Shown here: positions 1,078 through 34,076 of the stretch, piece after piece
Layout: every line of letters begins with the position of its first letter
Numbering within the stretch: the first letter of the stretch is position 1
Assembly: GCA_023128195.1 (NCBI GenBank)
Contig: JAGMEL010000054.1
Span: forward strand, 1 to 34,146
Origin: a candidate division WOR-3 bacterium
GTDB taxonomy: Bacteria; Hydrothermota; Tepidihabitantia; SM23-42
DNA: 34,146 bases
Direction of reading: 5' to 3'
Program-made: the position numbers and the translations under genes
The notes under the pieces: model-generated
Databases searched by the model: none
The model's input: only the letters and a program-made list of their open reading frames with translations
Told to the model about the DNA's origin: nothing

Positions 1078-4000
1078 ATGACCTTTATTCATTTACATAA
1101 CCACACAGAATACTCATTGCTCGATGGTGCAATGAAGATTGATCGACTTACTGAGCTTGCAGCAAAATACAAGATGCCAGCCCTTGCAATAACTGATCAT
1201 GGCAATATGTTTGGTGCGATTAAGTTCTATAAAAGTGCACATAGACGAGGCATAAAACCAATAATAGGTATTGAAACATACATTGCACCCAGATCAAGAT
1301 TGGATCAGTCAAAAAATATACGAATTCCAGAATCTTCGTTTCATTTGACCCTTTTATGCGAAGACGAAACAGGATATAAAAATTTAATAAAGTTGTCATC
1401 ATTAGCCTATCTTGAGGGGTTCTATTATAAGCCAAGGATAGATAAAGAAATTTTATCGCAATATCACAAAGGATTAATAGGTTTATCAGGTTGTCTTAAA
1501 GGAGAAATACCATATAAAATTGGTATGGGTGATATTAAAGGTGCTAAAAAATCTCTTCAAGAATATCAAGATATTTTAGGCAAAAACAATTTCTATATTG
1601 AAATAATGAGACTGGGTATTAAAAAAGAAGAAAGAGTTCATAAAGAATTAATCAATCTTGCGAATGAATTTGATGCACCTCTTGTTGCAACAAATGACTG
1701 CCATTATTTCTATGCGGATGATTATAAAGCCCATGATGTTCTTTTATGTATCGGGACAAAAAAAACATTATCTGACAGAGAACGCCTACGTTTTGAAACG
1801 CATTATGCTTATTTTCGTTCACCCAAGGAAATGGCAAAACTATTTGAGGACTTACCTGAGGCAATTACAAATACAAGATTGATTGCTGAAAGATGTAATC
1901 TAAAGATTGATACTTCAGGAAAAGATGTGAAACTTCCAACTTTTCCAAGACCACAAAATTTTGAGACCGATTTTGACTATCTCAAATATTTAACATTTGA
2001 AAATGTAAAACATCGATTTGACAGGACAACTCCGGGTATCGAGGAGAGATTGAGATATGAATTAGGGATTATTAAAAAGATGGGGTTGTCAGGATACTTT
2101 CTCATCGTGCGGGAGATTGTTGAGTTTGCTCGGGAAAAAGGGATTCCGGTTGGACCAGGTCGAGGTTCAGCAGTTGGCAGTCTGGCATTATATTCCCTTG
2201 GTATAACTGATGTGGATCCCTTGAAATACAATCTTATTTTTGAAAGATTTCTCAACCCTGATCGACTTAGTCTGCCTGATGTTGATGCTGATTTTGGCGA
2301 TACGAGAAGGGATGAGATAATAGATTTTATTAAAAAGAGATATGGTGAAAAGAATGTTACGCAGGTGATCACCTTTGGTACAATGCAGGCACGGGCTGTG
2401 CTCAGGGATGTAGCCAGAGTTATGAGTATACCTTATGGTGAAATCGATCGTATAGCAAAACTCATTCCATTTCACAAGAGTATTGATGAGGCAATAAATG
2501 AAGTTAAGGAGCTCAAGACCCTTATTGACTCCAAGGAAGAATACAAAGAATTGGTAGATATTGCCAAAAAACTGGAAGGAATTGCCCGCCATCCAGCTAC
2601 CCATGCTGCTGGTGTAGTAATTACACCCAAGGAACTGGTTGAATATGTGCCACTATTCAGAAGCCCGGACCGGGGCGAAATTTCTACACAATATGCAAAA
2701 AATTCTCTGGAAGACATTGGAATACTCAAGATGGATATATTGGGTCTACGAACCCTGACCGTTATTGATAACACGCTTAAACTTATTGGCAGGCAGGTTG
2801 GAAACATCTCAATCTATGATAAGGAGACCTATGATATGCTCAAGCGGGGTGAGACAGTCGGTGTCTTTCAACTTGAGAGCCAAGGCATGCAAGAGATTCT
2901 GAAGAGCTTCAAACCCGAGAATTTTGAGGATTTAATTGCAGTAATTGCTCTGTATCGACCCGGACCCATGGGTAATATACAGAAAATGATCGAGAACAAG
3001 AATAACCCGAGAAAGATCAGATATCTACATCCTTTATTAGAACCGATTCTAAAAGAAACCTATGGTATGATTGTATATCAGGAGCAGGTTATGCGTATTG
3101 CTTCAACCGTTGCTGGATTCACTATGGCTGAAGCTGATACACTGCGTCGGGCAATGGGCAAGAAAATTCCTGAACTCATGAATGAAACAAGAGAAAAATT
3201 TATCTCGGGTGCTTGTGATAAAGGTCTTGTAGCCAGTGTTGCTGAAGATATATTCAATAAGGTTGCGCCCTTTGCAGGTTATGGTTTTAATAAATCACAT
3301 GCTGCTGCTTATGCGGCGTTGGCTAATCAAACGGCCTATCTTAAATGCCATTTTCCACAAGAATTCTTGATTTCTTTATTGAACAGCGAGATAAATGATA
3401 CTAAAAGATTATGGATTTTAATACGTGAAGTAAGAAGAATGGGAATGAAGATTTTAGCGCCTGATATAAACAAAAGTATTTATGAATTTAAAAAAGAAGG
3501 ATCTAATATAAGATATGGTCTTGGTGCCTTGAAAAATCTTGGAAAACCAATTGTTCAAACGATTCTTAAAGAAGTGCAGCGCGGTCCATTTACATCATTC
3601 TTTGAATTTCAAGCGCGAGTAAAGGGTTTGAATAAAAAATCTTTAGAATCTCTTATAAAATCCGACGCATTCCGTGAGTTTGAACCCGATATAAATAAAT
3701 TATTAAAGATTTTTACGAAAAATGAGGATGTGTTTGGTAGACAAGGTGTTCTTTTTGATGATTATAATGAAAATGATACGAAAAGACCAGAAAATACTAA
3801 AGATGTTGACCAGGATAATATATTGTATCAAAAAGAGGCTTTTGGATTCTATTTTTCCAAACATCCATTAGAAAATTATCAGGAAGAATTTTCTGCACTA
3901 GGGTTATTACCGATAAATGATCTTAGTAGTGTAAAAAATGGTGATTATATAATAATAGGCGGGCTGCTAAATTCAAAAAAGGTAAAAAAAGACAGAAAAG

Positions 4001-6567: not shown

Positions 6568-8001
6568 TTATTTTAATTTAACAACCTTCTTTAAGAAAAA
6601 CTCATTATTGTTATTTAAAATACAGAAATAGGTTCCTGTTGGCAATTCTTTGCCATAATCATCAGTTCCATCCCAATACACAGAAACCACAGATTTATTT
6701 GGATTACACAGATTAGTAACAGGGAAGGAACGAGCCAGTCTTCCTGTAGCATCGTAAATACTCATTGTGACTTGGCTCTTGGAACTTGGAGTTTGGAATT
6801 TGATATTTGTCAGCTTTGAAAATGGATTTGGCGCTATGCTAAAAGAAGTTGTTTTATAGTTCCTTTTTGTTTGTTCCACTCCGATTGGATACTCAAAATC
6901 AGCAAAATAAATACTGTAAGGTAGTATTTCTCCTTGTGTCCAGATTAAATATGCACCACAGCAATTCGGAAATCTGATTGGTTCATCAATATTGAATAAT
7001 GCTCTTAATGAACCTCCATCATACCATCCGCCAGCCCACAGATAATAGAGATTGTAATATATATCAATATAACCTGAGGAATCTTCTTGCCAGAAAAGAT
7101 AACTCCAGTTTTCACCGACTGTTGAGATAACCGGATACATAGAATGTCCCTGGGTTGGATAACCTCCGCCCGGGTTACCGCCATAAAAAAATGCTTCTAA
7201 ATTACCGGATGTACTATCTTCCCAGCAAGCAGATAATGAGTCCAGACCATAGCAAAAATCGAGCGAAGGGTGTCGAAGTACATGCCAGTGGTCAGCCAAG
7301 GAATATGTTGTTATCCAATTACTTCCTTCTTTATATCGATAAAGTATATGATAAGGCGTGTAAGAACTAGTATCAACACAAGCCCACAATATATATATAC
7401 GATTATCCGGTTGGAATATACTAATAGATGAATGTGAATTAGTTGCCTGTGCAGAACCATAATCACTTATCCTAAAGGTATCACTAAGAAAACCATTATC
7501 GCATGAACGATAAAAGATTTGATTATACCCATCTACATCCTCGGTCCAGGTAATATGGGCAACAAGGCTTGAATCAATCACTAAATCAGGAAGAATAGAA
7601 TTACCTGATGATTCACTCACATTTATTGGCGGTGCCCAGTCATCAAGACAGTCATAATAGACTTCGTAATTACCACTACCAGAATCAAAATACTGCCACG
7701 CAACATGACGGAATCCATATGTATCAACATCAAGTGCTGGACAAATGCCTTCATGAAAAGCAACTGGTGTCTGCCACGAAATACCCTCGTCAGTTGTAAA
7801 AATGTAATATACACTATCTGAGGAATGATAAACAATATGAATAGTGTCACTCATCCACTCGCCATTCTGCGTTACAATCTTGTGGCTGTTATTAAATGCA
7901 GTTGCATCGAATGAATTGGATGTAGTAACAAAGTGATATTGGGCACGGGTATACACACAGCATATAATAATACAAAACAAACACTTTTGTTGTATAGACA
8001 T
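6568..8001 (-). CDS. secreted repeat protein (sialidase/BNR-like propeller suspected) with T9SS C-terminal sorting domain
   Basis: N-terminal signal-like segment, one Asp-box-like TTDEGISW, and recurring aromatic ..W... strands. The C-terminal ~80 aa (APNPFSKLTNIKF...SIYDATGRLARSF...GTYFCIL...VKLK) match the T9SS type A / FlgD-Ig-like sorting domain. Confidence 0.75.
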   Translation of the reverse strand: MSIQQKCLFCIIICCVYTRAQYHFVTTSNSFDATAFNNSHKIVTQNGEWMSDTIHIVYHSSDSVYYIFTTDEGISWQTPVAFHEGICPALDVDTYGFRHVAWQYFDSGSGNYEVYYDCLDDWAPPINVSESSGNSILPDLVIDSSLVAHITWTEDVDGYNQIFYRSCDNGFLSDTFRISDYGSAQATNSHSSISIFQPDNRIYILWACVDTSSYTPYHILYRYKEGSNWITTYSLADHWHVLRHPSLDFCYGLDSLSACWEDSTSGNLEAFFYGGNPGGGYPTQGHSMYPVISTVGENWSYLFWQEDSSGYIDIYYNLYYLWAGGWYDGGSLRALFNIDEPIRFPNCCGAYLIWTQGEILPYSIYFADFEYPIGVEQTKRNYKTTSFSIAPNPFSKLTNIKFQTPSSKSQVTMSIYDATGRLARSFPVTNLCNPNKSVVSVYWDGTDDYGKELPTGTYFCILNNNNEFFLKKVVKLK

Positions 8002-8017
8002 ATTATACCTCCAATAT

Positions 8018-8045
8018 ATTATACTATGATTAAACTTTTTGTCAA
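8018..8045 (-). promoter_or_regulatory. sigma70-type promoter for the 6568-8001 gene
   Basis: On the minus strand: TTGACA (8045-8040), 16 nt spacer, TATAAT (8023-8018), then GGAGG RBS and ATG at 8001. Confidence 0.55.
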
Positions 8046-27720: not shown

Positions 27721-27802
27721 ATCCAAAACAAACAGATTATATTGCTGAAAATGAAGAAGAGTTGATTAAGTATTTAACTGATTACAGGAAAACCAATACA
27801 AA

Positions 27803-28558
27803 ATGAAGTACGATAAGACTGATATACCTTCGCGTTATGAGCAAGCTCGAAAACTTCCTGAAGAGACAACGAAACTGTGGCTTGAAACTGTCTCGAGGTA
27901 TATACCACAAGGTTCAATAGAAACTATTATCGATTTGGGTTGCGGTATTGGTAGATTTTCAAAGGCGTTAGCGGATCATTTCTCCGCACAAATCTATGGT
28001 ATTGATCCATCCTGGAAGATGTTGAAAGAAGCCAGAGGCGCTACATTGTCAACAAAAGTAACATTTCTACGAGGATCAGCAGAATATATACCGTTGACCG
28101 ATGGTTTAGCCGATCTAATTTTTCTCTCGCAAGTTTATCATCATATAGAGGATAAAAAAAGAGCTTTTTTAGAAATTAAAAGAGTATTAGAAGCAGATGG
28201 ATTTCTCTGTATCCGTACATCAACCATAGAGAATCTCAACACAATTCTCTACCTTCGGTTTTTCCCACCAGCATTGAAGAAAGATATGGAATTCCTATCA
28301 TCAAGAAATGATATAATAGATACTGTACATAGTAGCGGATTTAAGTTAAAGGGACACGAAATAGTACGGCAGAAGTTCGCTAATAATCTTGAGGAATATT
28401 GTGAAAAGATCAAATCAAGAGGATTATTAGATCTTGTTAGTATTACCGATGAAGAATTTCACGATGGGCTTGCTAAACTAGAGATTTACTGTAAAGAACA
28501 GGATACAGAAACAGATGTTCTTGAGGAACTCGATTTCTTTATCTATACAAAAGTATGA
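27803..28558 (+). CDS. class I SAM-dependent methyltransferase
   Basis: Motif I IIDLGCGIGRFSKALA, motif post-I IYGIDPS, and ADLIFLSQVYHHI. Confidence 0.8.
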   Translation: MKYDKTDIPSRYEQARKLPEETTKLWLETVSRYIPQGSIETIIDLGCGIGRFSKALADHFSAQIYGIDPSWKMLKEARGATLSTKVTFLRGSAEYIPLTDGLADLIFLSQVYHHIEDKKRAFLEIKRVLEADGFLCIRTSTIENLNTILYLRFFPPALKKDMEFLSSRNDIIDTVHSSGFKLKGHEIVRQKFANNLEEYCEKIKSRGLLDLVSITDEEFHDGLAKLEIYCKEQDTETDVLEELDFFIYTKV

Positions 28559-29217
28559 TTGAAGTAACTATCAAAGGGAAGCGGCTCATGTTCCAGACAA
28601 GCGACACCATGTTTTCCCCCCGTTACATTGATCCTGGCACTCTAGCAATGCTGTCTCAGGTTGATTTCCATAACGAAAAACTAATACTTGATTTCGGATG
28701 TGGATATGGGGTCGTGGGCATTCTTGCTGCAAAATTTATTGATCCATCCAGAGTGTACATAGTTGACATCGATGCAGAAGCAATTCGCCTTTCAAAGGAA
28801 AATGCAAGATTAAATAACGTTGAAGGTGTGCATATCATACAGAGTGATGGATTTAAGAACCTGGACGTCACAGGTTTCTCGCTCATTCTATGTAATCCTC
28901 CATATACAGTAGACTTTGCAGTTCCAAAACGCTTCATAAAAAAGGGATTCAATCGACTACGGATTGGTGGTCGCTTTTTCATGGTGACCAGGCGGCGCCT
29001 GTGGTATAAGAATAAGTTTATCTCCGTTTTCGGAGGAGTGCAGATCGAACAAGTAGACGACTACAATGTCTTCTGCGCTATTAAAAAAACTAAACATTAT
29101 GTAGATGGATTAGAAAAGCCGATGCGTAAGAGAAGCATGAGCAAGAAACTCACACGTAGAGTCAAAGCATCCGGACGACACAGAAGGTGTAAAAACAAAT
29201 ATGAGAAATTAATATGA
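28555..29217 (+). CDS. methyltransferase-small-domain protein (RsmC/RlmG-like, NPPY class) with a basic C-terminal tail
   Basis: ILDFGCGYGVVGILAA (motif I) and ILCNPPY (motif IV of N-methylating enzymes). The last ~35 aa are Lys/Arg-rich (KPMRKRSMSKKLTRRVKASGRHRRCKNKYEKLI). Its ATGA start overlaps the upstream stop. Confidence 0.75.
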   Translation: MIEVTIKGKRLMFQTSDTMFSPRYIDPGTLAMLSQVDFHNEKLILDFGCGYGVVGILAAKFIDPSRVYIVDIDAEAIRLSKENARLNNVEGVHIIQSDGFKNLDVTGFSLILCNPPYTVDFAVPKRFIKKGFNRLRIGGRFFMVTRRRLWYKNKFISVFGGVQIEQVDDYNVFCAIKKTKHYVDGLEKPMRKRSMSKKLTRRVKASGRHRRCKNKYEKLI

Positions 29218-29876
29218 AAGAAATTGAGGATTTAAAAAGGTATTATTCAGATAGAGCAAAAGAGTATAACAAAACTGCTGGATATAAAGACCCGGCTGCT
29301 GAAAAAATAAGAAAAAGAATAAAACTCCGACATCAAAAATATTTCAAAGGACACGATGTTTTAGAAATTGCCTGCGGTACAGGCTATTGGACTGAAGTTA
29401 TTGCAGAGACAGCAAACTCAGTTTTAGCAATAGACACAAGCGAAGAAATGATTTCAATTGCAAAAACAAGACTTTCTAAAAAACAAAATGTAAACTTCAA
29501 AATTACTGATGTCTATGTATTACATGACATACATGATTCTTTTACAGCTGCTTATGCGCACTGGTGGTGGTCACATATTCCAAAATCAAAAATAAGAAAT
29601 TTTCTACTGAATTTGCATAAGCAGCTAATATCTGGAGCATTCGTATTGTTCGCTGATCATTTACCTGATTATTTGGAAAAAGAGATTAAAGTGAATTACA
29701 ATGAAGATGGAGATAGACTAGAAGAAAGAATACTTAAAAATGGAAAAAAATATCTTGTTGTAAAAAATTTTCCATCCAAGGAAGAAATCTATTCTTCTTT
29801 ATCCGGTTTAGCAAAAAATATAAATTTTCAAGAATATGAAGGTTACTGGGAATTGTATTATAACGTATTAAAATGA
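29214..29876 (+). CDS. class I SAM-dependent methyltransferase
   Basis: VLEIACGTGYWTEVIA (motif I) and VLAIDTSEEM. Its ATGA start overlaps the upstream stop. Confidence 0.75.
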   Translation: MKEIEDLKRYYSDRAKEYNKTAGYKDPAAEKIRKRIKLRHQKYFKGHDVLEIACGTGYWTEVIAETANSVLAIDTSEEMISIAKTRLSKKQNVNFKITDVYVLHDIHDSFTAAYAHWWWSHIPKSKIRNFLLNLHKQLISGAFVLFADHLPDYLEKEIKVNYNEDGDRLEERILKNGKKYLVVKNFPSKEEIYSSLSGLAKNINFQEYEGYWELYYNVLK

Positions 29877-29904
29877 TAATGGTAACTATAGAGTCGGTGT
29901 TTGA

Positions 29905-29935
29905 CCCCGGTGAAATAAACAAAAATTGCACGGGG
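29905..29935. terminator. hairpin between convergent genes (possible bidirectional terminator)
   Basis: CCCCGGTG-N16-CACGGGG with one bulged G. T/A-rich flanks. Confidence 0.35.
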
Positions 29936-30034
29936 CAGGCATTTTGACATTTCATGGACTAAGTATAGCATCAAGGATTGTTTCTTTCCTTTTTTTTCCA
30001 GGTACTTAACTAAATCCCTGCGTTATACTGACAT

Positions 30035-30253
30035 CTATACTTCGACAGGAATTTGTTCTATAAGGGCTCTGCCAATCGGGAATTCTCTTTTCTGCTCCTT
30101 ATAAGCCCTTATCATTTCTTGTAAAGCATCCTTAAGCATATCTCTACATTCTTCTAAAGTTTTACCTTCAGTTATTACCTCTGGCCACTCCACCAGTTGC
30201 CCCATATAACCAGAACTTATTTTTGTGTATTTGGCTGTATAATTGCTTAACAT
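30035..30253 (-). CDS. hicB: HicB-like type II antitoxin (UPF0150 fold), apparently orphan
   Basis: 72 aa. GYMGQLVEWPEVITEGKTLEECRDMLKDALQEMI matches the HicB N-terminal domain pattern. RBS AAGGAG, and its own consensus promoter. Confidence 0.7.
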   Translation of the reverse strand: MLSNYTAKYTKISSGYMGQLVEWPEVITEGKTLEECRDMLKDALQEMIRAYKEQKREFPIGRALIEQIPVEV

Positions 30254-30362
30254 ATTATTGACTCCTTATATATTATTATATTGAAGCACCTGCCTATGTC
30301 AAGTATGCTAATCTATAATTTGCTAACCCCCAGCGGATTATTTCTTAATCCTTCTTCTCATT
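30195..30362. repeat. direct repeat copy 1 (hicB 5' end, RBS, promoter and upstream region)
   Basis: Aligns by hand with 33506-33655: about 11 mismatches over ~150 positions, plus an 18-nt segment (GACTCCTTATATATTATT, containing the RBS) present only here. Confidence 0.9.
30275..30302 (-). promoter_or_regulatory. consensus promoter of hicB
   Basis: On the minus strand: TTGACA (30302-30297), 16 nt spacer, TATAAT (30280-30275). Confidence 0.6.
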
Positions 30363-30459
30363 ATATTCATCTTTCTGTTCGATATCTACGACGAGATTTT
30401 CAGCGATACTAACGGTCGGCAAGTGTGTTAAAATATATAATAATAGACAGAATTTTATC

Positions 30460-30487
30460 TTGACATTAACCGATAAGCTCTTATAAT
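30460..30487 (+). promoter_or_regulatory. consensus promoter of the propeller cargo gene
   Basis: TTGACA (30460-30465), 16 nt spacer, TATAAT (30482-30487). The RBS AAGGAGG lies before the ATG at 30542. Confidence 0.55.
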
Positions 30488-30541
30488 GATATGTTACGTA
30501 TAAAAAATCGTATAATAGCACAAGAAAGGAGGTGACTGTAA

Positions 30542-31636
30542 ATGTTTAAAAGATTGGTGCTTGTTGCATTAATATCTCTTGCTGCAATTATTGGGTTGCC
30601 TGAGATATGTAGCGCTACTATGATGACACAGGGAGATCTGATGGTAAAAACTCCTGGAAATAGCATGGCATTGGATACAGGTCAGGTAGTTTTCCAGTTC
30701 AATGCTCCAAATACACAGGTTGATGGTTTGACCTGGGATGGAACTAACCTGTGGCTTTCCTGTGACGCCTTGAGTAGGATATGGAAGATTGATACACTTG
30801 GTTCAGTTCTTGACTTTATTCCTTCACCTGGTCCTTTACCTACAGGATTGACTTGGGATGGACAATATCTGTGGTGTGCTGACTGTTATACTTTCTTTAT
30901 CTACAAGCTGGATCCAGCTACAGGTAGCATCATTGATTCGATTCCATGTCCAGGTACTGGAAACTCCTGCGAGGGATTGGCGTGGATGAATGACACCCTC
31001 TGGAATACTAACTTCGTTAACAACTTCATCTGGGAGCTCGATCCAGCTACTGGCGATGTCTGGGATAAATTCCCTGCTCCAAATGGTAGTTCTACTGGAC
31101 TTGCGTGGGATTGGCACGATAACTGTTTATGGAATTCGGATCAAACCTCTAGCTTGATCTATAAGCTAGACCCTGCTACTGGTACGGTAATCACATCTTT
31201 TGCTCAGCCTGGTGGGGCTGGTACATATGTTCAGGATCTGGCCTTTGACGGTACATACTTATGGACTTGTACTTACGATCAGGCTATAGTTTACAAGATT
31301 GATATCGGGTATGTTGGTGTTGAGGAACATAAATCTTCGCAACCAATGTCTATTGTCTTACAGGTCAGTCCGAACCCATTCACAACAAAAACAGATATTA
31401 AATGGACGATGGGAGATGAAAGATTACAGACAGAAACCTTCTCGTTAAAGATATATGATACTTCTGGTCATTTAGTTAAAAACTTATCACTGCCTAGTGC
31501 CTACTCTTTGGCGTCTAATAAAGTTTCTTGGTACGGTTTTGATAACACAGGACAGCAACTTCCCAGCGGTGTTTATTTCTTAAAGGTTCAAGCAGAAGAT
31601 TACAGTACTACAGAGAAATTGCTGTTAATAAAATAA
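30542..31636 (+). CDS. secreted five-repeat beta-propeller protein with T9SS C-terminal sorting domain
   Basis: Signal peptide. Five repeats GLTWDG..LW...D....IYK(L/I)DPATG are paralogous to those of 24448-26049. The C-terminus is SPNPFTTKTDIKW...LKIYDTSGHLVKNL...SGVYFLKV...LLLIK. Confidence 0.8.
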   Translation: MFKRLVLVALISLAAIIGLPEICSATMMTQGDLMVKTPGNSMALDTGQVVFQFNAPNTQVDGLTWDGTNLWLSCDALSRIWKIDTLGSVLDFIPSPGPLPTGLTWDGQYLWCADCYTFFIYKLDPATGSIIDSIPCPGTGNSCEGLAWMNDTLWNTNFVNNFIWELDPATGDVWDKFPAPNGSSTGLAWDWHDNCLWNSDQTSSLIYKLDPATGTVITSFAQPGGAGTYVQDLAFDGTYLWTCTYDQAIVYKIDIGYVGVEEHKSSQPMSIVLQVSPNPFTTKTDIKWTMGDERLQTETFSLKIYDTSGHLVKNLSLPSAYSLASNKVSWYGFDNTGQQLPSGVYFLKVQAEDYSTTEKLLLIK

Positions 31637-31660
31637 GAGAGCTTTAAGTTTAATACAGAA

Positions 31661-31708
31661 GGAAGTACCCAATCCTTTCGCAGAAAGGGCTGGGTAAACT
31701 TCCTTTTT
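31661..31708 (+). terminator. rho-independent terminator
   Basis: Stem of about 18 bp (GGAAGTACCCAATCCTTTC / GAAAGGGCTGGGTAAACTTCC, with one mismatch, one GU pair and a 2-nt bulge), followed by TTTTT. Confidence 0.6.
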
Positions 31709-31954
31709 ACTAAAGACGATGATGGGGAATGATGGGGTCAAATTTCTACTTTGAACATAAAATCAGTGTTTAACACAATCAAAGCTCTACTTTTGATAGA
31801 TACTACACACTACGCTTTGAAAAGGAAGTCGGGTCATTCCTTCATCGAAATTGCAAAATTCTGCTGCTACACCGTCCTCCATCATGTTCAGAGGTTGAAT
31901 AAAGATTGTGGTGATTACTGCATTTTTTCGGACAGCTTTTAAATTTGTGGAAAT

Positions 31955-33451
31955 CTAATGTATTAGTATCATCCGTTTTGTGTTTATATAGTTTCCAGCA
32001 TTGAGGTAATAGAAGTAGATTCCACTCGGTACTACTTTACCTTTTTCATCCTTGCTATCCCATTTAACTGCATAGTTACCAGTTCCCTGATTTTTGCTCA
32101 CAAGCGTTCGCACACGTTTACCTGCGACGTTATGTATCCTTAAGCAAATATAACAATCAGATGGTACTTGATAGAAAATGGTCGTGTTTGTACTGAATGG
32201 ATTCGGATAGTTTTGGCTTAAAGTATAGACTTTCGCTAAATTAGTAGTCAATTTATCTTCTTCGACTCCAGCTTGCCAACTTTCATTATCACAAAAAATC
32301 TTATCGGTTCCTTCGCGGTAGTCTGTCCAAACTACTAGTGCGCTGTCGCTGTGCATATAACATATACCGATCCTTTGAAATGTCGTATTATCAACATCGT
32401 TTATGCGTAACCAAGAGGATGAAAAACTCGATGGTGTAGTTACTGCTTTATACTTGATATTATGCGATGTACCAAAACATGCTGCTCTAAACTTACCTCC
32501 GCCAAAGCAAATCGCGAAAGCATCATTTTCTCCACAGGCAACAGGAAGGTTAATTTCATACCAGTTGATTCCTCCGTTATTAGACCACACACATTTAGTT
32601 GATGGTGTTGAACCTCCTAATATAACTACATATGCATCGTTTGCGCATATTTTGGGGGTTCTCTCCACTATATCTATTGGAATAACTTGAGATGCAAAAC
32701 TGCTGCCTCCGTTAGTACTTTTGGCAAACTTTAGAGTGTCTAGGGCATCTGCATACCATACTATATATATTGTGTCTGAGAGAGGTATATGGTAAACATC
32801 AGGTCCTTCATGATCTTCATTAATGGCAAAATAACATTCGTTAATCCAACTTAGACCACCATCAGTAGATTTATAATAAACCACGCAATTTTCAGCGCCA
32901 CCTGTTCCATATTCATATATAAAAACTATATCGATAACATCACTCATCCCCCGTTTTTTGCTCATTCTAGATTCATCTGCTGGAATTTGAGGAAACGCGT
33001 AAAAATTTCCAGTTCCACCAGTTTTTGGAAGACTATAAGCTATAACTCTTTCTGGTGTGTTTTCTCTGGTGTAACTAATGCAAACTCTATTTTGGGTAAC
33101 AACTATGGATCCCAAAAGAAGTTCATAGTTATTGGTGTTAAAGATACCACCAAACTGCGTCCAGGTATATCCCCCGTCATTAGTTTTGAATATAAGAATT
33201 GCAGGATAATCGTTAATTTTTCCCTCAAAAGCGCAGTAAGCAGTATGATAATTTTGAGGATCATCATCTATCTCTGGAGCTTTATGTGGAACATAACCAT
33301 CTGTTATTTTAACATCATCAGCAAACCTAAAATGTGATTTCCGATGTGGTGTTTGATATTGTATTGCCAGAGGAGTTATTTCAATTTCCTCCTGTGCCCA
33401 GATGAGGGTGCAGCTGATTATTATTGTTAATACAAGAAATTTCTTAAGCAT
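31955..33451 (-). CDS. secreted BNR/Asp-box (sialidase-like) propeller protein with T9SS C-terminal sorting domain
   Basis: Asp-box repeats TNDGGYTW, STDGGLSW, STNGGSSF and SNNGGINW. C-terminus YPNPFSTNTTIFYQV...LRIHNVAGKRVRTL...SGIYFYYL. The start was moved to the ATG at 33451 (MLKKFLVLT signal peptide, GGAGG RBS). Confidence 0.8.
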   Translation of the reverse strand: MLKKFLVLTIIISCTLIWAQEEIEITPLAIQYQTPHRKSHFRFADDVKITDGYVPHKAPEIDDDPQNYHTAYCAFEGKINDYPAILIFKTNDGGYTWTQFGGIFNTNNYELLLGSIVVTQNRVCISYTRENTPERVIAYSLPKTGGTGNFYAFPQIPADESRMSKKRGMSDVIDIVFIYEYGTGGAENCVVYYKSTDGGLSWINECYFAINEDHEGPDVYHIPLSDTIYIVWYADALDTLKFAKSTNGGSSFASQVIPIDIVERTPKICANDAYVVILGGSTPSTKCVWSNNGGINWYEINLPVACGENDAFAICFGGGKFRAACFGTSHNIKYKAVTTPSSFSSSWLRINDVDNTTFQRIGICYMHSDSALVVWTDYREGTDKIFCDNESWQAGVEEDKLTTNLAKVYTLSQNYPNPFSTNTTIFYQVPSDCYICLRIHNVAGKRVRTLVSKNQGTGNYAVKWDSKDEKGKVVPSGIYFYYLNAGNYINTKRMILIH

Positions 33452-33505
33452 TTTTCCTCCTTTTAATATAATAATAAACATATTTTTAGAAAAATCAAGA
33501 ATACA

Positions 33506-33564
33506 AGTTGCCCCATATAACCAGAACTTATTTTTATGTATTTGGTTGTATAATTGCTTAACAT
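33506..33564 (-). pseudogene. truncated hicB 5' fragment (first ~20 codons)
   Basis: The minus strand reads MLSNYTTKYIKISSGYMGQL and then diverges, compared with MLSNYTAKYTKISSGYMGQL in the intact gene. There is no RBS. Confidence 0.6.
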
Positions 33565-33567
33565 ATT

Positions 33568-33595
33568 ATTATATTGAAGCACCTATCTATGTCAA
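33568..33595 (-). promoter_or_regulatory. duplicated hicB-type promoter, now upstream of the BNR cargo gene
   Basis: On the minus strand: TTGACA (33595-33590), 16 nt spacer, TATAAT (33573-33568). It lies ~115 nt upstream of the ATG at 33451. Confidence 0.45.
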
Positions 33596-33700
33596 GTATG
33601 CTAATCTACAATTTACTAAACCCCAGCGGATTATTTCTCAATCTTTCCTCTCATTCGACAAACTCAGGGCAGGCGGGATGAATTAATATTGTTTAGTTCG

Positions 33701-33728
33701 TTGACATAGTTTCTTTATTGAATATAAT
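33701..33728 (+). promoter_or_regulatory. consensus promoter of tRNA-Leu
   Basis: TTGACA (33701-33706), 16 nt spacer, TATAAT (33723-33728). The tRNA starts ~43 nt downstream. Confidence 0.5.
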
Positions 33729-33770: not shown

Positions 33771-33856
33771 GCCGAGATGGCGGAACTGGGAGACGCGGCG
33801 GACTCAAAATCCGCAGTTCTGAAAGGAGCGTGGGGGTTCAACTCCCCCTCTCGGCA
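33771..33856 (+). tRNA. tRNA-Leu (anticodon CAA), type II with long variable arm
   Basis: Acceptor GCCGAGA/TCTCGGC plus discriminator A. Anticodon stem GCGGA/TCCGC with loop CTCAAAA. Long variable arm and T-arm GGGGG-TTCAACT-CCCCC. Overall very similar to bacterial tRNA-Leu. CCA is not encoded. Confidence 0.9.
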
Positions 33857-34076
33857 CTCTCCCCCTCGAAGGGGGGATACCCCCCTTCTCTCCACTCACT
33901 TTTCAAACAGAATAAAAACTTCGTGGAGACCTCGAAACCCCCCAGGGGTGTCCTTCTACATACGAAAATTTTATCTACAGACGCACTAACCCCAAAATGT
34001 GTAAGGCGGTGTAGCGACTTCCCCTCGAGGTATCTTTGGATAAATTCGAAATCCTAATATCTAAATTCTAAATAAA

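Follow-up and report, generated by a model that had tools for sequence, protein, structure and literature searches.

We analysed a 34,146-nt stretch of DNA, contig JAGMEL010000054.1 of assembly GCA_023128195.1, which we call the window throughout. In it, a direct repeat carrying the promoter and 5' end of hicB, an antitoxin gene, brackets about 3.1 kb of DNA that holds two genes for predicted cargo of the type IX secretion system (T9SS). Comparison with related contigs indicates that the bracketed DNA is a derived insertion between hicB and a tRNA-Leu(CAA) gene, and we consider it probable that the repeat copies mark either side of this one insertion, which would have arisen by recombination anchored on the conserved hicB block. 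Judging from the contigs compared, which belong to a Fidelibacterota (Marinimicrobia) population, the hicB/tRNA-Leu interval is a recombination-prone hot spot for insertions next to a tRNA gene. The features on which the argument turns are the following, with RBS standing for ribosome-binding site.

30035..30253, minus strand: hicB, coding for a 72-aa, single-domain HicB/UPF0150 antitoxin (PF21748, E=1.7e-8, 34.7 bits against a cut-off of 27.3)
30195..30362, minus strand: repeat copy A, comprising some 60 nt of conserved upstream block, then the hicB promoter and RBS, and hicB itself as far as 2 nt past codon 19
30363..33505, no strand assigned: insert-specific DNA, 3143 nt, absent from empty-site relatives
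33506..33655, minus strand: repeat copy B, a hicB 5' stump beside the tRNA-Leu flank, 93.3% identical to A and without the 18-nt RBS segment
33656..33770, plus strand: native flank on the tRNA-Leu side, which includes the tRNA-Leu promoter (33701-33728) and is contiguous with the single repeat copy in empty-site relatives
33771..33857, plus strand: tRNA-Leu(CAA), the conserved anchor that bounds the hot spot at its far end

Relatives with an empty site

Relatives that have the hicB locus and lack the 3.3 kb segment, a comparison proposed in an earlier, sequence-only reading of this DNA, do exist. Three contigs reached through close HicB homologues (L008, L016 and L033), all from more diverged lineages, run uninterrupted from tRNA-Leu(CAA) through its promoter, a short flank and a single repeat copy into hicB. 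Their HicB proteins are 96%, 93% and 94% identical to that of the window, respectively, and their similarity to the window, by BLAST and in alignments, passes from the B side to the A side with breakpoints exactly at 33503 and 30362. From the end of the GH57 gene to the start of hicB there are 818 nt in L008, which is 3291 nt fewer than the 4109 nt in the window contig, and 3291 nt is also the spacing between the repeat copies.

The empty lineages, about 91-95% identical to the window, are spread across the diversity, and the insert is present only in contigs that are 99-100% identical to the window. Three separate lineages have the empty state and the 99-100% clade alone has the filled one, so positions 30363-33505 are best read as a derived insertion. 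The single copies in the empty sites have none of the six substitutions private to copy B and retain the 18 nt that B has lost, so they are ancestral and not the products of recent or hybrid excision. The host is placed by L021, a GTDB genome 99.2% identical over the neighbouring genes, which is labelled Candidatus Neomarinimicrobiota, that is, phylum Fidelibacterota of the Fibrobacterota-Chlorobiota-Bacteroidota (FCB) group. More distant HicB relatives (P0007, P0009 and P0013) lie in unrelated contexts and are informative only for the order of hicB and hicA.

The window derives from an ENA metagenome scaffold of 129.5 kb and strains are heterogeneous at this locus, which would be compatible with a chimeric assembly joining two strains at shared sequence. 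Yet ENA scaffold_10 and Logan contig L003 (3838 nt) each span both repeat copies and both genes, and L032, from another run (SRR14339846), is 100% identical to the window over 29739-32111, from copy A through the first cargo gene into the second. An assembly artefact is essentially refuted.

Structure of the two repeat copies

Local alignment of the two copies, which lie in the same orientation, gives 150 aligned nt with 10 mismatches (93.3% identity) and a single 18-nt gap in B, in two blocks: A 30195-30251 with B 33506-33562 (57 nt, 2 mismatches) and A 30270-30362 with B 33563-33655 (93 nt, 8 mismatches). A repeat search and a MAFFT alignment agree. The sequence-only reading had put the repeat at the same coordinates with about 11 mismatches over about 150 nt, had B lacking exactly the 18 nt with the RBS and its hicB frame diverging after about 20 codons, and had described a TTGACA-N16-TATAAT promoter; the computed alignment bears this out, with the gap at 30252-30269, the shared codons numbering 19 plus 2 nt before divergence, and 12/12 promoter matches in both copies. 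When copy A was searched with BLAST against the whole window, B was found at E=2e-51 and no other match fell below E=0.19, so there are two copies, and their similarity is far beyond chance. The longest run of perfect identity between them, 3.3 kb apart as they are, is 30 nt.

A dispersed repeat family or a phage origin was rejected, because just two copies occur in the window and a conserved 20-mer of the repeat has no match among 2.9 million viral contigs. Elsewhere this 20-mer was found in one relative among GTDB genomes and in two JGI metagenome stretches, one of which is a relative (L018) and the other a chance match without hicB (L019).

Copy A is the functional hicB promoter and 5' end, and copy B is a dead stump. 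Private substitutions number six in B, on top of the 18-nt deletion, versus one in A, and A is nearly identical to the single repeat copy of L008, L016 and L018. Two features belong to the decay of B:

30252..30269, minus strand: the 18 nt found in A and absent from B, which hold the hicB RBS AAGGAG
33463..33564, minus strand: hicB' stub open reading frame (ORF) of 33 codons, without an RBS, which leaves hicB after codon 19-20 (read from the sequence)

In A the 18-nt segment is bounded by an 8-nt direct repeat, AATAATAT, as read from the sequence and the alignments. With this repeat at both ends, the loss of the segment from B fits a slipped-strand or microhomology deletion; every single-copy relative retains it. 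After the loss, the ATG of the stump stands only 4 nt past the -10 hexamer of the promoter in B, and the stub ORF stops just ahead of the RBS of the neighbouring cargo gene.

The upstream edge of the repeat (30362/33655) is the end of a block that is conserved in all lineages, while the downstream edge (30195/33506) interrupts coding sequence that is conserved everywhere else. That the edges are unlike in kind suggests that one is the end of likeness between two hicB alleles and the other a true illegitimate junction. An upstream edge that coincides with the edge of the conserved block is as expected if homology between two alleles delimits the repeat. At 30316-30351, moreover, strains are mosaics of A-type and B-type states, which points to recombination in the repeat block.

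These edges bear on whether the repeat arose in place, as the sequence-only reading had proposed. By that account a 168-nt segment with the hicB promoter and 5' end would have been copied locally, through a long target-site duplication or template switching, leaving a spare promoter before the second cargo gene. The copies are direct, only two in number in the window and 93% identical, and A matches the single copy of the relatives, as expected if both copies began as resident sequence and B decayed; the insert of L018, described below, is also flanked by a duplicated local target (28-29 nt), which fits a target duplication of variable length. Against this, the upstream edge lies exactly where conservation between lineages ends, which is unexpected for a random staggered break, and the 25 nt next to A are shared with a strain that bears a different island, which argues for allele exchange. 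We know of no insertion mechanism that makes 28-nt and 168-nt target duplications at will. Recombination between two hicB alleles explains the repeat as well as or better than segmental duplication in situ and accounts for its edge, so the latter is not needed and seems to us rather unlikely.

Alternative cargo at the same site

The interval between hicB and tRNA-Leu occurs in at least four states: empty (L008, L016, L033), with the module of the window, with a 9.3 kb module (L018), and with a different island (L021). T9SS-secreted propeller cargo is found in 2/3 of the filled versions. The features that define the other two, and the flank that one of them has in common with the window, are:

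3623-3651 and 12934-12962 of L018 (JGI Ga0209986_10000542): the repeat that flanks the L018 insert
3929-12010 of L021 (GCA_030665885.1, DAOUYY010000033.1): island with an ArsR-type HTH (HTH_5), a beta-lactamase, a 944-aa protein, SIR2_2 and pP_pnuc_1
30363..30387 of the window, minus strand: alternative flank of 25 nt that adjoins copy A, common to L006 and L021 with 2-3 changes

In L018 the 9.3 kb between hicB and tRNA-Leu carry four propeller/Por_Secre_tail (T9SS cargo) genes and an N6_N4 DNA methylase. This insert lies within the tRNA-Leu promoter, and an imperfect direct repeat of that promoter, 28-29 nt long, borders it on both sides; L033, to which L018 is a 91% relative, provides the matching empty site. 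An extension of the flanking repeat beyond 29 nt was hinted at by MAFFT and was not significant in local alignment. L021 has copy A and just 25 further nt (30363-30387) in common with the window before it passes into its own island, which, from its predicted genes, looks defence-like. Among all sequences compared, the 25-nt flank was found solely at the present locus and not as a recurring recombination site. Sister-strain assemblies end near copy A, L002 and L004 at 30408 and L006 at 30450, and L006 has five substitutions packed within 30363-30410.

Breaks at this distance from copy A (50-90 nt in L002, L004 and L006), which graph branching at a polymorphic site could cause, might be taken as a sign of a currently active module, in which RecA-mediated recombination between A and B would excise the two cargo genes or amplify them in tandem, giving copy-number or phase variation. 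The geometry permits such recombination, with direct repeats 3.3 kb apart, and the sequence-only reading had raised it. Yet no hybrid repeat and no head-to-tail junction, the marks of excision and amplification, occurs in any contig examined, and in 5/5 contigs of the 99% clade that extend upstream of A the sequence enters the alternative flank and not the tRNA flank. The empty sites, ancestral and in diverged lineages, have none of B's private changes. RecA requires a minimal length of homology and recombines short identity runs inefficiently, and the copies are 93% identical with runs of at most 30 nt. We give an active module a very small chance.

A tRNA gene is a classic island site, and the insert lies directly beside tRNA-Leu. 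The repeats might thus be the attachment sites of an integrase-dependent element, either mobilised in trans in the manner of a cis-mobilizable element (CIME) or left by a decayed tRNA-associated island; the inserts of the window and of L018 each lie between direct repeats, and the islands of the window and L021 share a terminal sequence of 25 nt where they meet copy A. But none of the ORFs scanned, in the insert and across the rest of the 34 kb window, showed an integrase, transposase or recombinase domain; the genes of the window are otherwise ordinary chromosomal ones, and no excised form was seen among the available contigs. The repeats include no part of the tRNA gene, the L018 repeat differs both in length and in position, being in the tRNA promoter, copy B stops within the hicB coding sequence and restores nothing, and the repeat 20-mer is absent from the viral contigs. 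An integrative element is, in our judgement, highly unlikely.

Probable recombination on the hicB block

The reading we favour, and the most economical one, is recombination anchored on hicB; it starts from an ancestral order of tRNA-Leu(CAA) with its promoter, a short flank, the conserved hicB promoter block, hicB and hicA. A 3.1 kb piece with the two T9SS cargo genes would have been joined into hicB at about codon 20, bringing or regenerating a complete hicB promoter and 5' end (copy A) and stranding the old hicB 5' end (copy B) beside the tRNA gene. Two routes could have produced this. In the first, one-sided homologous and one-sided illegitimate recombination would have used a donor hicB with other upstream neighbours, a process of the type called homology-facilitated illegitimate recombination (HFIR), which was reportedly described by de Vries and Wackernagel and by Prudhomme et al., both in 2002; hicB and the genes downstream of it, a plausible anchor, would supply the homology, and the other end would join at codon 20 of hicB, with the illegitimate junction at 33502/33503. 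In the second, a circle carrying the hicB block would have integrated by a single crossover (Campbell-type). The present data do not separate the two routes. Copy B would then have decayed, losing the 18 nt with the RBS and gaining its six private substitutions, while keeping a perfect sigma-70-type promoter from which transcription would read through a 110-nt leader into the second cargo gene.

Two points weigh against this account. It is A, and not B, that resembles the single copies of the empty sites over its whole length, which means that either a crossover at the very edge of the homology or decay of B after the insertion is needed. A donor of the insert, sought through homologues of the cargo proteins, was not found, the closest being only 50-60% identical and in unrelated contexts.

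A broader reading, which we hold to be quite unlikely, is that the hicB block and the tRNA-Leu promoter together serve as an integrase-free landing pad, where T9SS modules would be swapped by homologous or homology-facilitated recombination and a strong promoter would be stranded and reused each time. If true, Fidelibacterota would have a cassette system for surface and secreted proteins that works by recombination.

The duplicated promoter and the BNR-like gene

The sequence-only reading pointed out that the duplicated promoter faces a BNR/sialidase-like cargo gene. The relevant features are:

30302-30275, minus strand: hicB promoter (A), TTGACA-N16-TATAAT, 12/12 matches
33595-33568, minus strand: duplicated promoter (B), 12/12 matches with two spacer changes, facing the BNR-like gene
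31955..33451, minus strand: BNR-like cargo gene, 498 aa, with a FlgD_ig/Por_Secre_tail C-terminus and the RBS AAGGAGG upstream of its ATG at 33451

Promoter A is followed by 21 nt, including the RBS AAGGAG, before the start of hicB. In promoter B, the -10 hexamer lies 117 nt upstream of the ATG of the BNR-like gene, and no terminator or structure is predicted in the 110-nt leader between them, which appears unstructured (z = -0.25). The earlier observation holds, in that the site is intact, rightly oriented and followed by no predicted terminator before the gene. From this arrangement we lean slightly towards the view that promoter B has been captured for transcription of the BNR-like gene. 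A consideration on the other side is a weaker promoter-like site, TTGATT-N16-TATTAT (9/12), at 33498-33471 in insert-specific DNA just upstream of the gene, because of which the gene may not depend on promoter B.

Perfect promoters of this kind are unusual for FCB-group organisms and among natural promoters generally. In the 34 kb window there are seven perfect 12/12 TTGACA/TATAAT promoters, each upstream of a gene or tRNA and in the right orientation; six have N16 spacers, where 0.02 would be expected by chance, and one has a spacer of 17 nt. Given their placement and excess, such sites appear to be used in the host organism.

8018-8045(-), 11318(+), 22514-22541(-), 30275-30302(-), 30460-30487(+), 33568-33595(-) and 33701-33728(+): the seven perfect promoters

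The two cargo genes of the insert

Only two genes lie between the repeat copies, as the sequence-only reading had it, the BNR-like gene and a propeller gene with a promoter of its own.

30542..31636, plus strand: propeller cargo gene, a DUF6923/SGL-like beta-propeller with a C-terminal Por_Secre_tail domain
30460..30487, plus strand: promoter of the propeller gene, a perfect consensus, divergent from hicB

T9SS cargo is recognised by a C-terminal sorting domain (Por_Secre_tail PF18962 or CHU_C), and the proteins of the insert are predicted to be such cargo on this basis. In the propeller protein, Por_Secre_tail scores 32.2 bits against a cut-off of 27. In the BNR-like protein it falls below the cut-off at 23.9 bits, FlgD_ig exceeds its own with 33.5 bits, and the homologues carry PF18962. 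The assignment of the BNR-like product to BNR/sialidase-type propellers is a tentative one drawn from domains of remote homologues, and hydrophobic N-termini of the two proteins (MFKRLVLVALISLAAIIGLPEICSA and MLKKFLVLTIIISCTLIWAQ), which may be Sec signal peptides, were seen by eye only. The closest non-self homologue of the propeller protein is 60% identical, and those of the BNR-like protein about 50%. The best propeller homologue lies in an unrelated locus beside a different cargo neighbour, and the two genes are not a conserved pair.

The two genes are convergent, and between them, at 31650-31710, a GC-containing hairpin is followed by a T-run (GGAAGTACCCAATCCTTTCGCAGAAAGGGCTGGGTAAACTTCCTTTTT). 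It is not listed by a terminator scan, and is probably a terminator that the two genes share. A further T9SS cargo gene (FlgD_ig plus Por_Secre_tail) lies at 6568-8001 on the minus strand, and only 17 nt separate its ATG from the end of a perfect promoter.

An orphan hicB with a decayed downstream hicA

The HicB of the window belongs to a large family: a search returned 4718 homologues at E<=1e-5, many of them annotated as HicB or HicB family antitoxin. Proteins at least 80% identical to this 72-aa HicB are found in genomes and metagenome-assembled genomes labelled Stahlbacteria, Moorella, Dehalococcoidia and Hermodarchaeota, and conservation across phyla to this extent suggests very frequent horizontal transfer. 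UPF0150 was the sole domain that the domain search detected in the 72 aa, with no DNA-binding domain, which leaves co-regulation of promoters A and B by HicB unsupported.

In the relatives L012, L013 and L008, hicA lies directly downstream of hicB, and in L012 and L013 a 62-aa HicA (PF07927) starts 2 nt after hicB. The gene is intact in all three (4352-4537 in L008). In the window, tblastn with the HicA of L012 and alignment with the hicA of L008 place what is left of it in the same position:

29988..30034, minus strand: hicA remnant, the first 16 codons, reading MSV, a stop (TAA at codon 4) and RRDLVKYLEKKG, with the rest deleted

L021 is truncated likewise and lacks the stop, an in-frame internal deletion in L016 and L018 leaves MSV plus ICKQAGLK.KF, and L033 has another deletion. 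While hicB is intact in the window, L008, L016, L018, L021 and L033, intact hicA is found among these only in L008. Read from these sequences, the window hicB is an orphan antitoxin, and hicA has decayed by different deletions in different lineages.

The sequence-only reading had sought the missing toxin partner in an ORF upstream of hicB, whose stop both repeat copies keep. This proved wrong, since hicA belongs downstream of hicB and its remnant lies at 29988-30034. The upstream ORF, of 58 codons, was rejected as a lost toxin gene, with no family match, and as a gene at all: it has an in-frame TAA in the 99%-identical L021, all 5 nt differences in L006 change amino acids, with 4 residues altered, and the empty-site relatives have no room for it, as the tRNA promoter lies 45-80 nt away.

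Relation to known systems

The locus is a further example of something known, a polymorphic insertion that leaves a repeat as its scar at a hot spot beside a tRNA gene, and represents ordinary genome plasticity and not a new kind of element. The nearest likeness is to the additive flexible genomic islands at tRNA-adjacent integration hot spots in Alteromonas (Lopez-Perez and Rodriguez-Valera, PMC4898812). As in those islands, there is a slot beside a tRNA gene between conserved genes, related strains hold different cassettes or none, direct repeats are the trace of addition, and content turns over even among strains about 99% identical. Unlike in those islands, the repeats of the window and L018 consist of the hicB promoter and 5' end and of the tRNA promoter, respectively, and not of tRNA sequence, and no integrase was found.

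HFIR has been invoked for the sequential displacement of effector-immunity modules of the type VI secretion system, in which remnants of orphan genes are left behind (Kirchberger et al. 2017, PMC5361080). Here too a conserved stretch would act as the homologous anchor, the other end would join illegitimately, and a piece of the resident gene would persist as an orphan stump; what is stranded here is a promoter and 5' end, however, and not a 3' orphan gene, and the process is a putative one. Campbell-type integration, whose reverse is loop-out, likewise yields an insert between direct repeats that match the shared homology in length, and is reversible in principle. The locus differs in that no circular form or hybrid repeat was seen in contigs and in that B is divergent over its whole length, which would call for a crossover at the extreme edge of the homology. 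A transposon or insertion sequence agrees less well, because no transposase was found, the insert ends share, by inspection, only about 5 nt in inverted orientation, and the target duplication is not of one fixed, short length: in the window it measures 150-168 nt, in L018 28-29 nt. As for type II HicAB systems, with the order hicB-hicA, the window has a clear hicB family member whose relatives in L008, L012 and L013 keep an adjacent hicA, but lacks an intact adjacent HicA (PF07927), with only the 16-codon remnant and its stop in its place.

Current concepts are left unchanged, and the value of the locus lies in annotation and in the population genomics of the Fidelibacterota group. It shows at base resolution an uncultivated bacterium of the FCB group (Fidelibacterota/Marinimicrobia) varying its T9SS-secreted repertoire between near-identical strains, at a tRNA-adjacent hot spot and with no recombinase gene found in the 34 kb window. 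It illustrates that an insertion can leave a strong orphan promoter aimed at a new gene, and it corrects the idea of an upstream toxin partner, the antitoxin being orphaned through decay of the downstream hicA.

Variation in the neighbouring genes

Near-identical strains also differ next to the hot spot. The sister strains L021, L024, L027 and L029 have an extra 1.1 kb at 27802-27807, with Formyl_trans_N and SET-domain genes, directly upstream of a 251-aa methyltransferase, and the same 6 nt match on both sides of it. Within 28555-29876, one methyltransferase has 176 aa in L022 and 220 in the window, and another has 182 aa in L021 and 220 in the window; these differences in length suggest frameshifts or nonsense changes.

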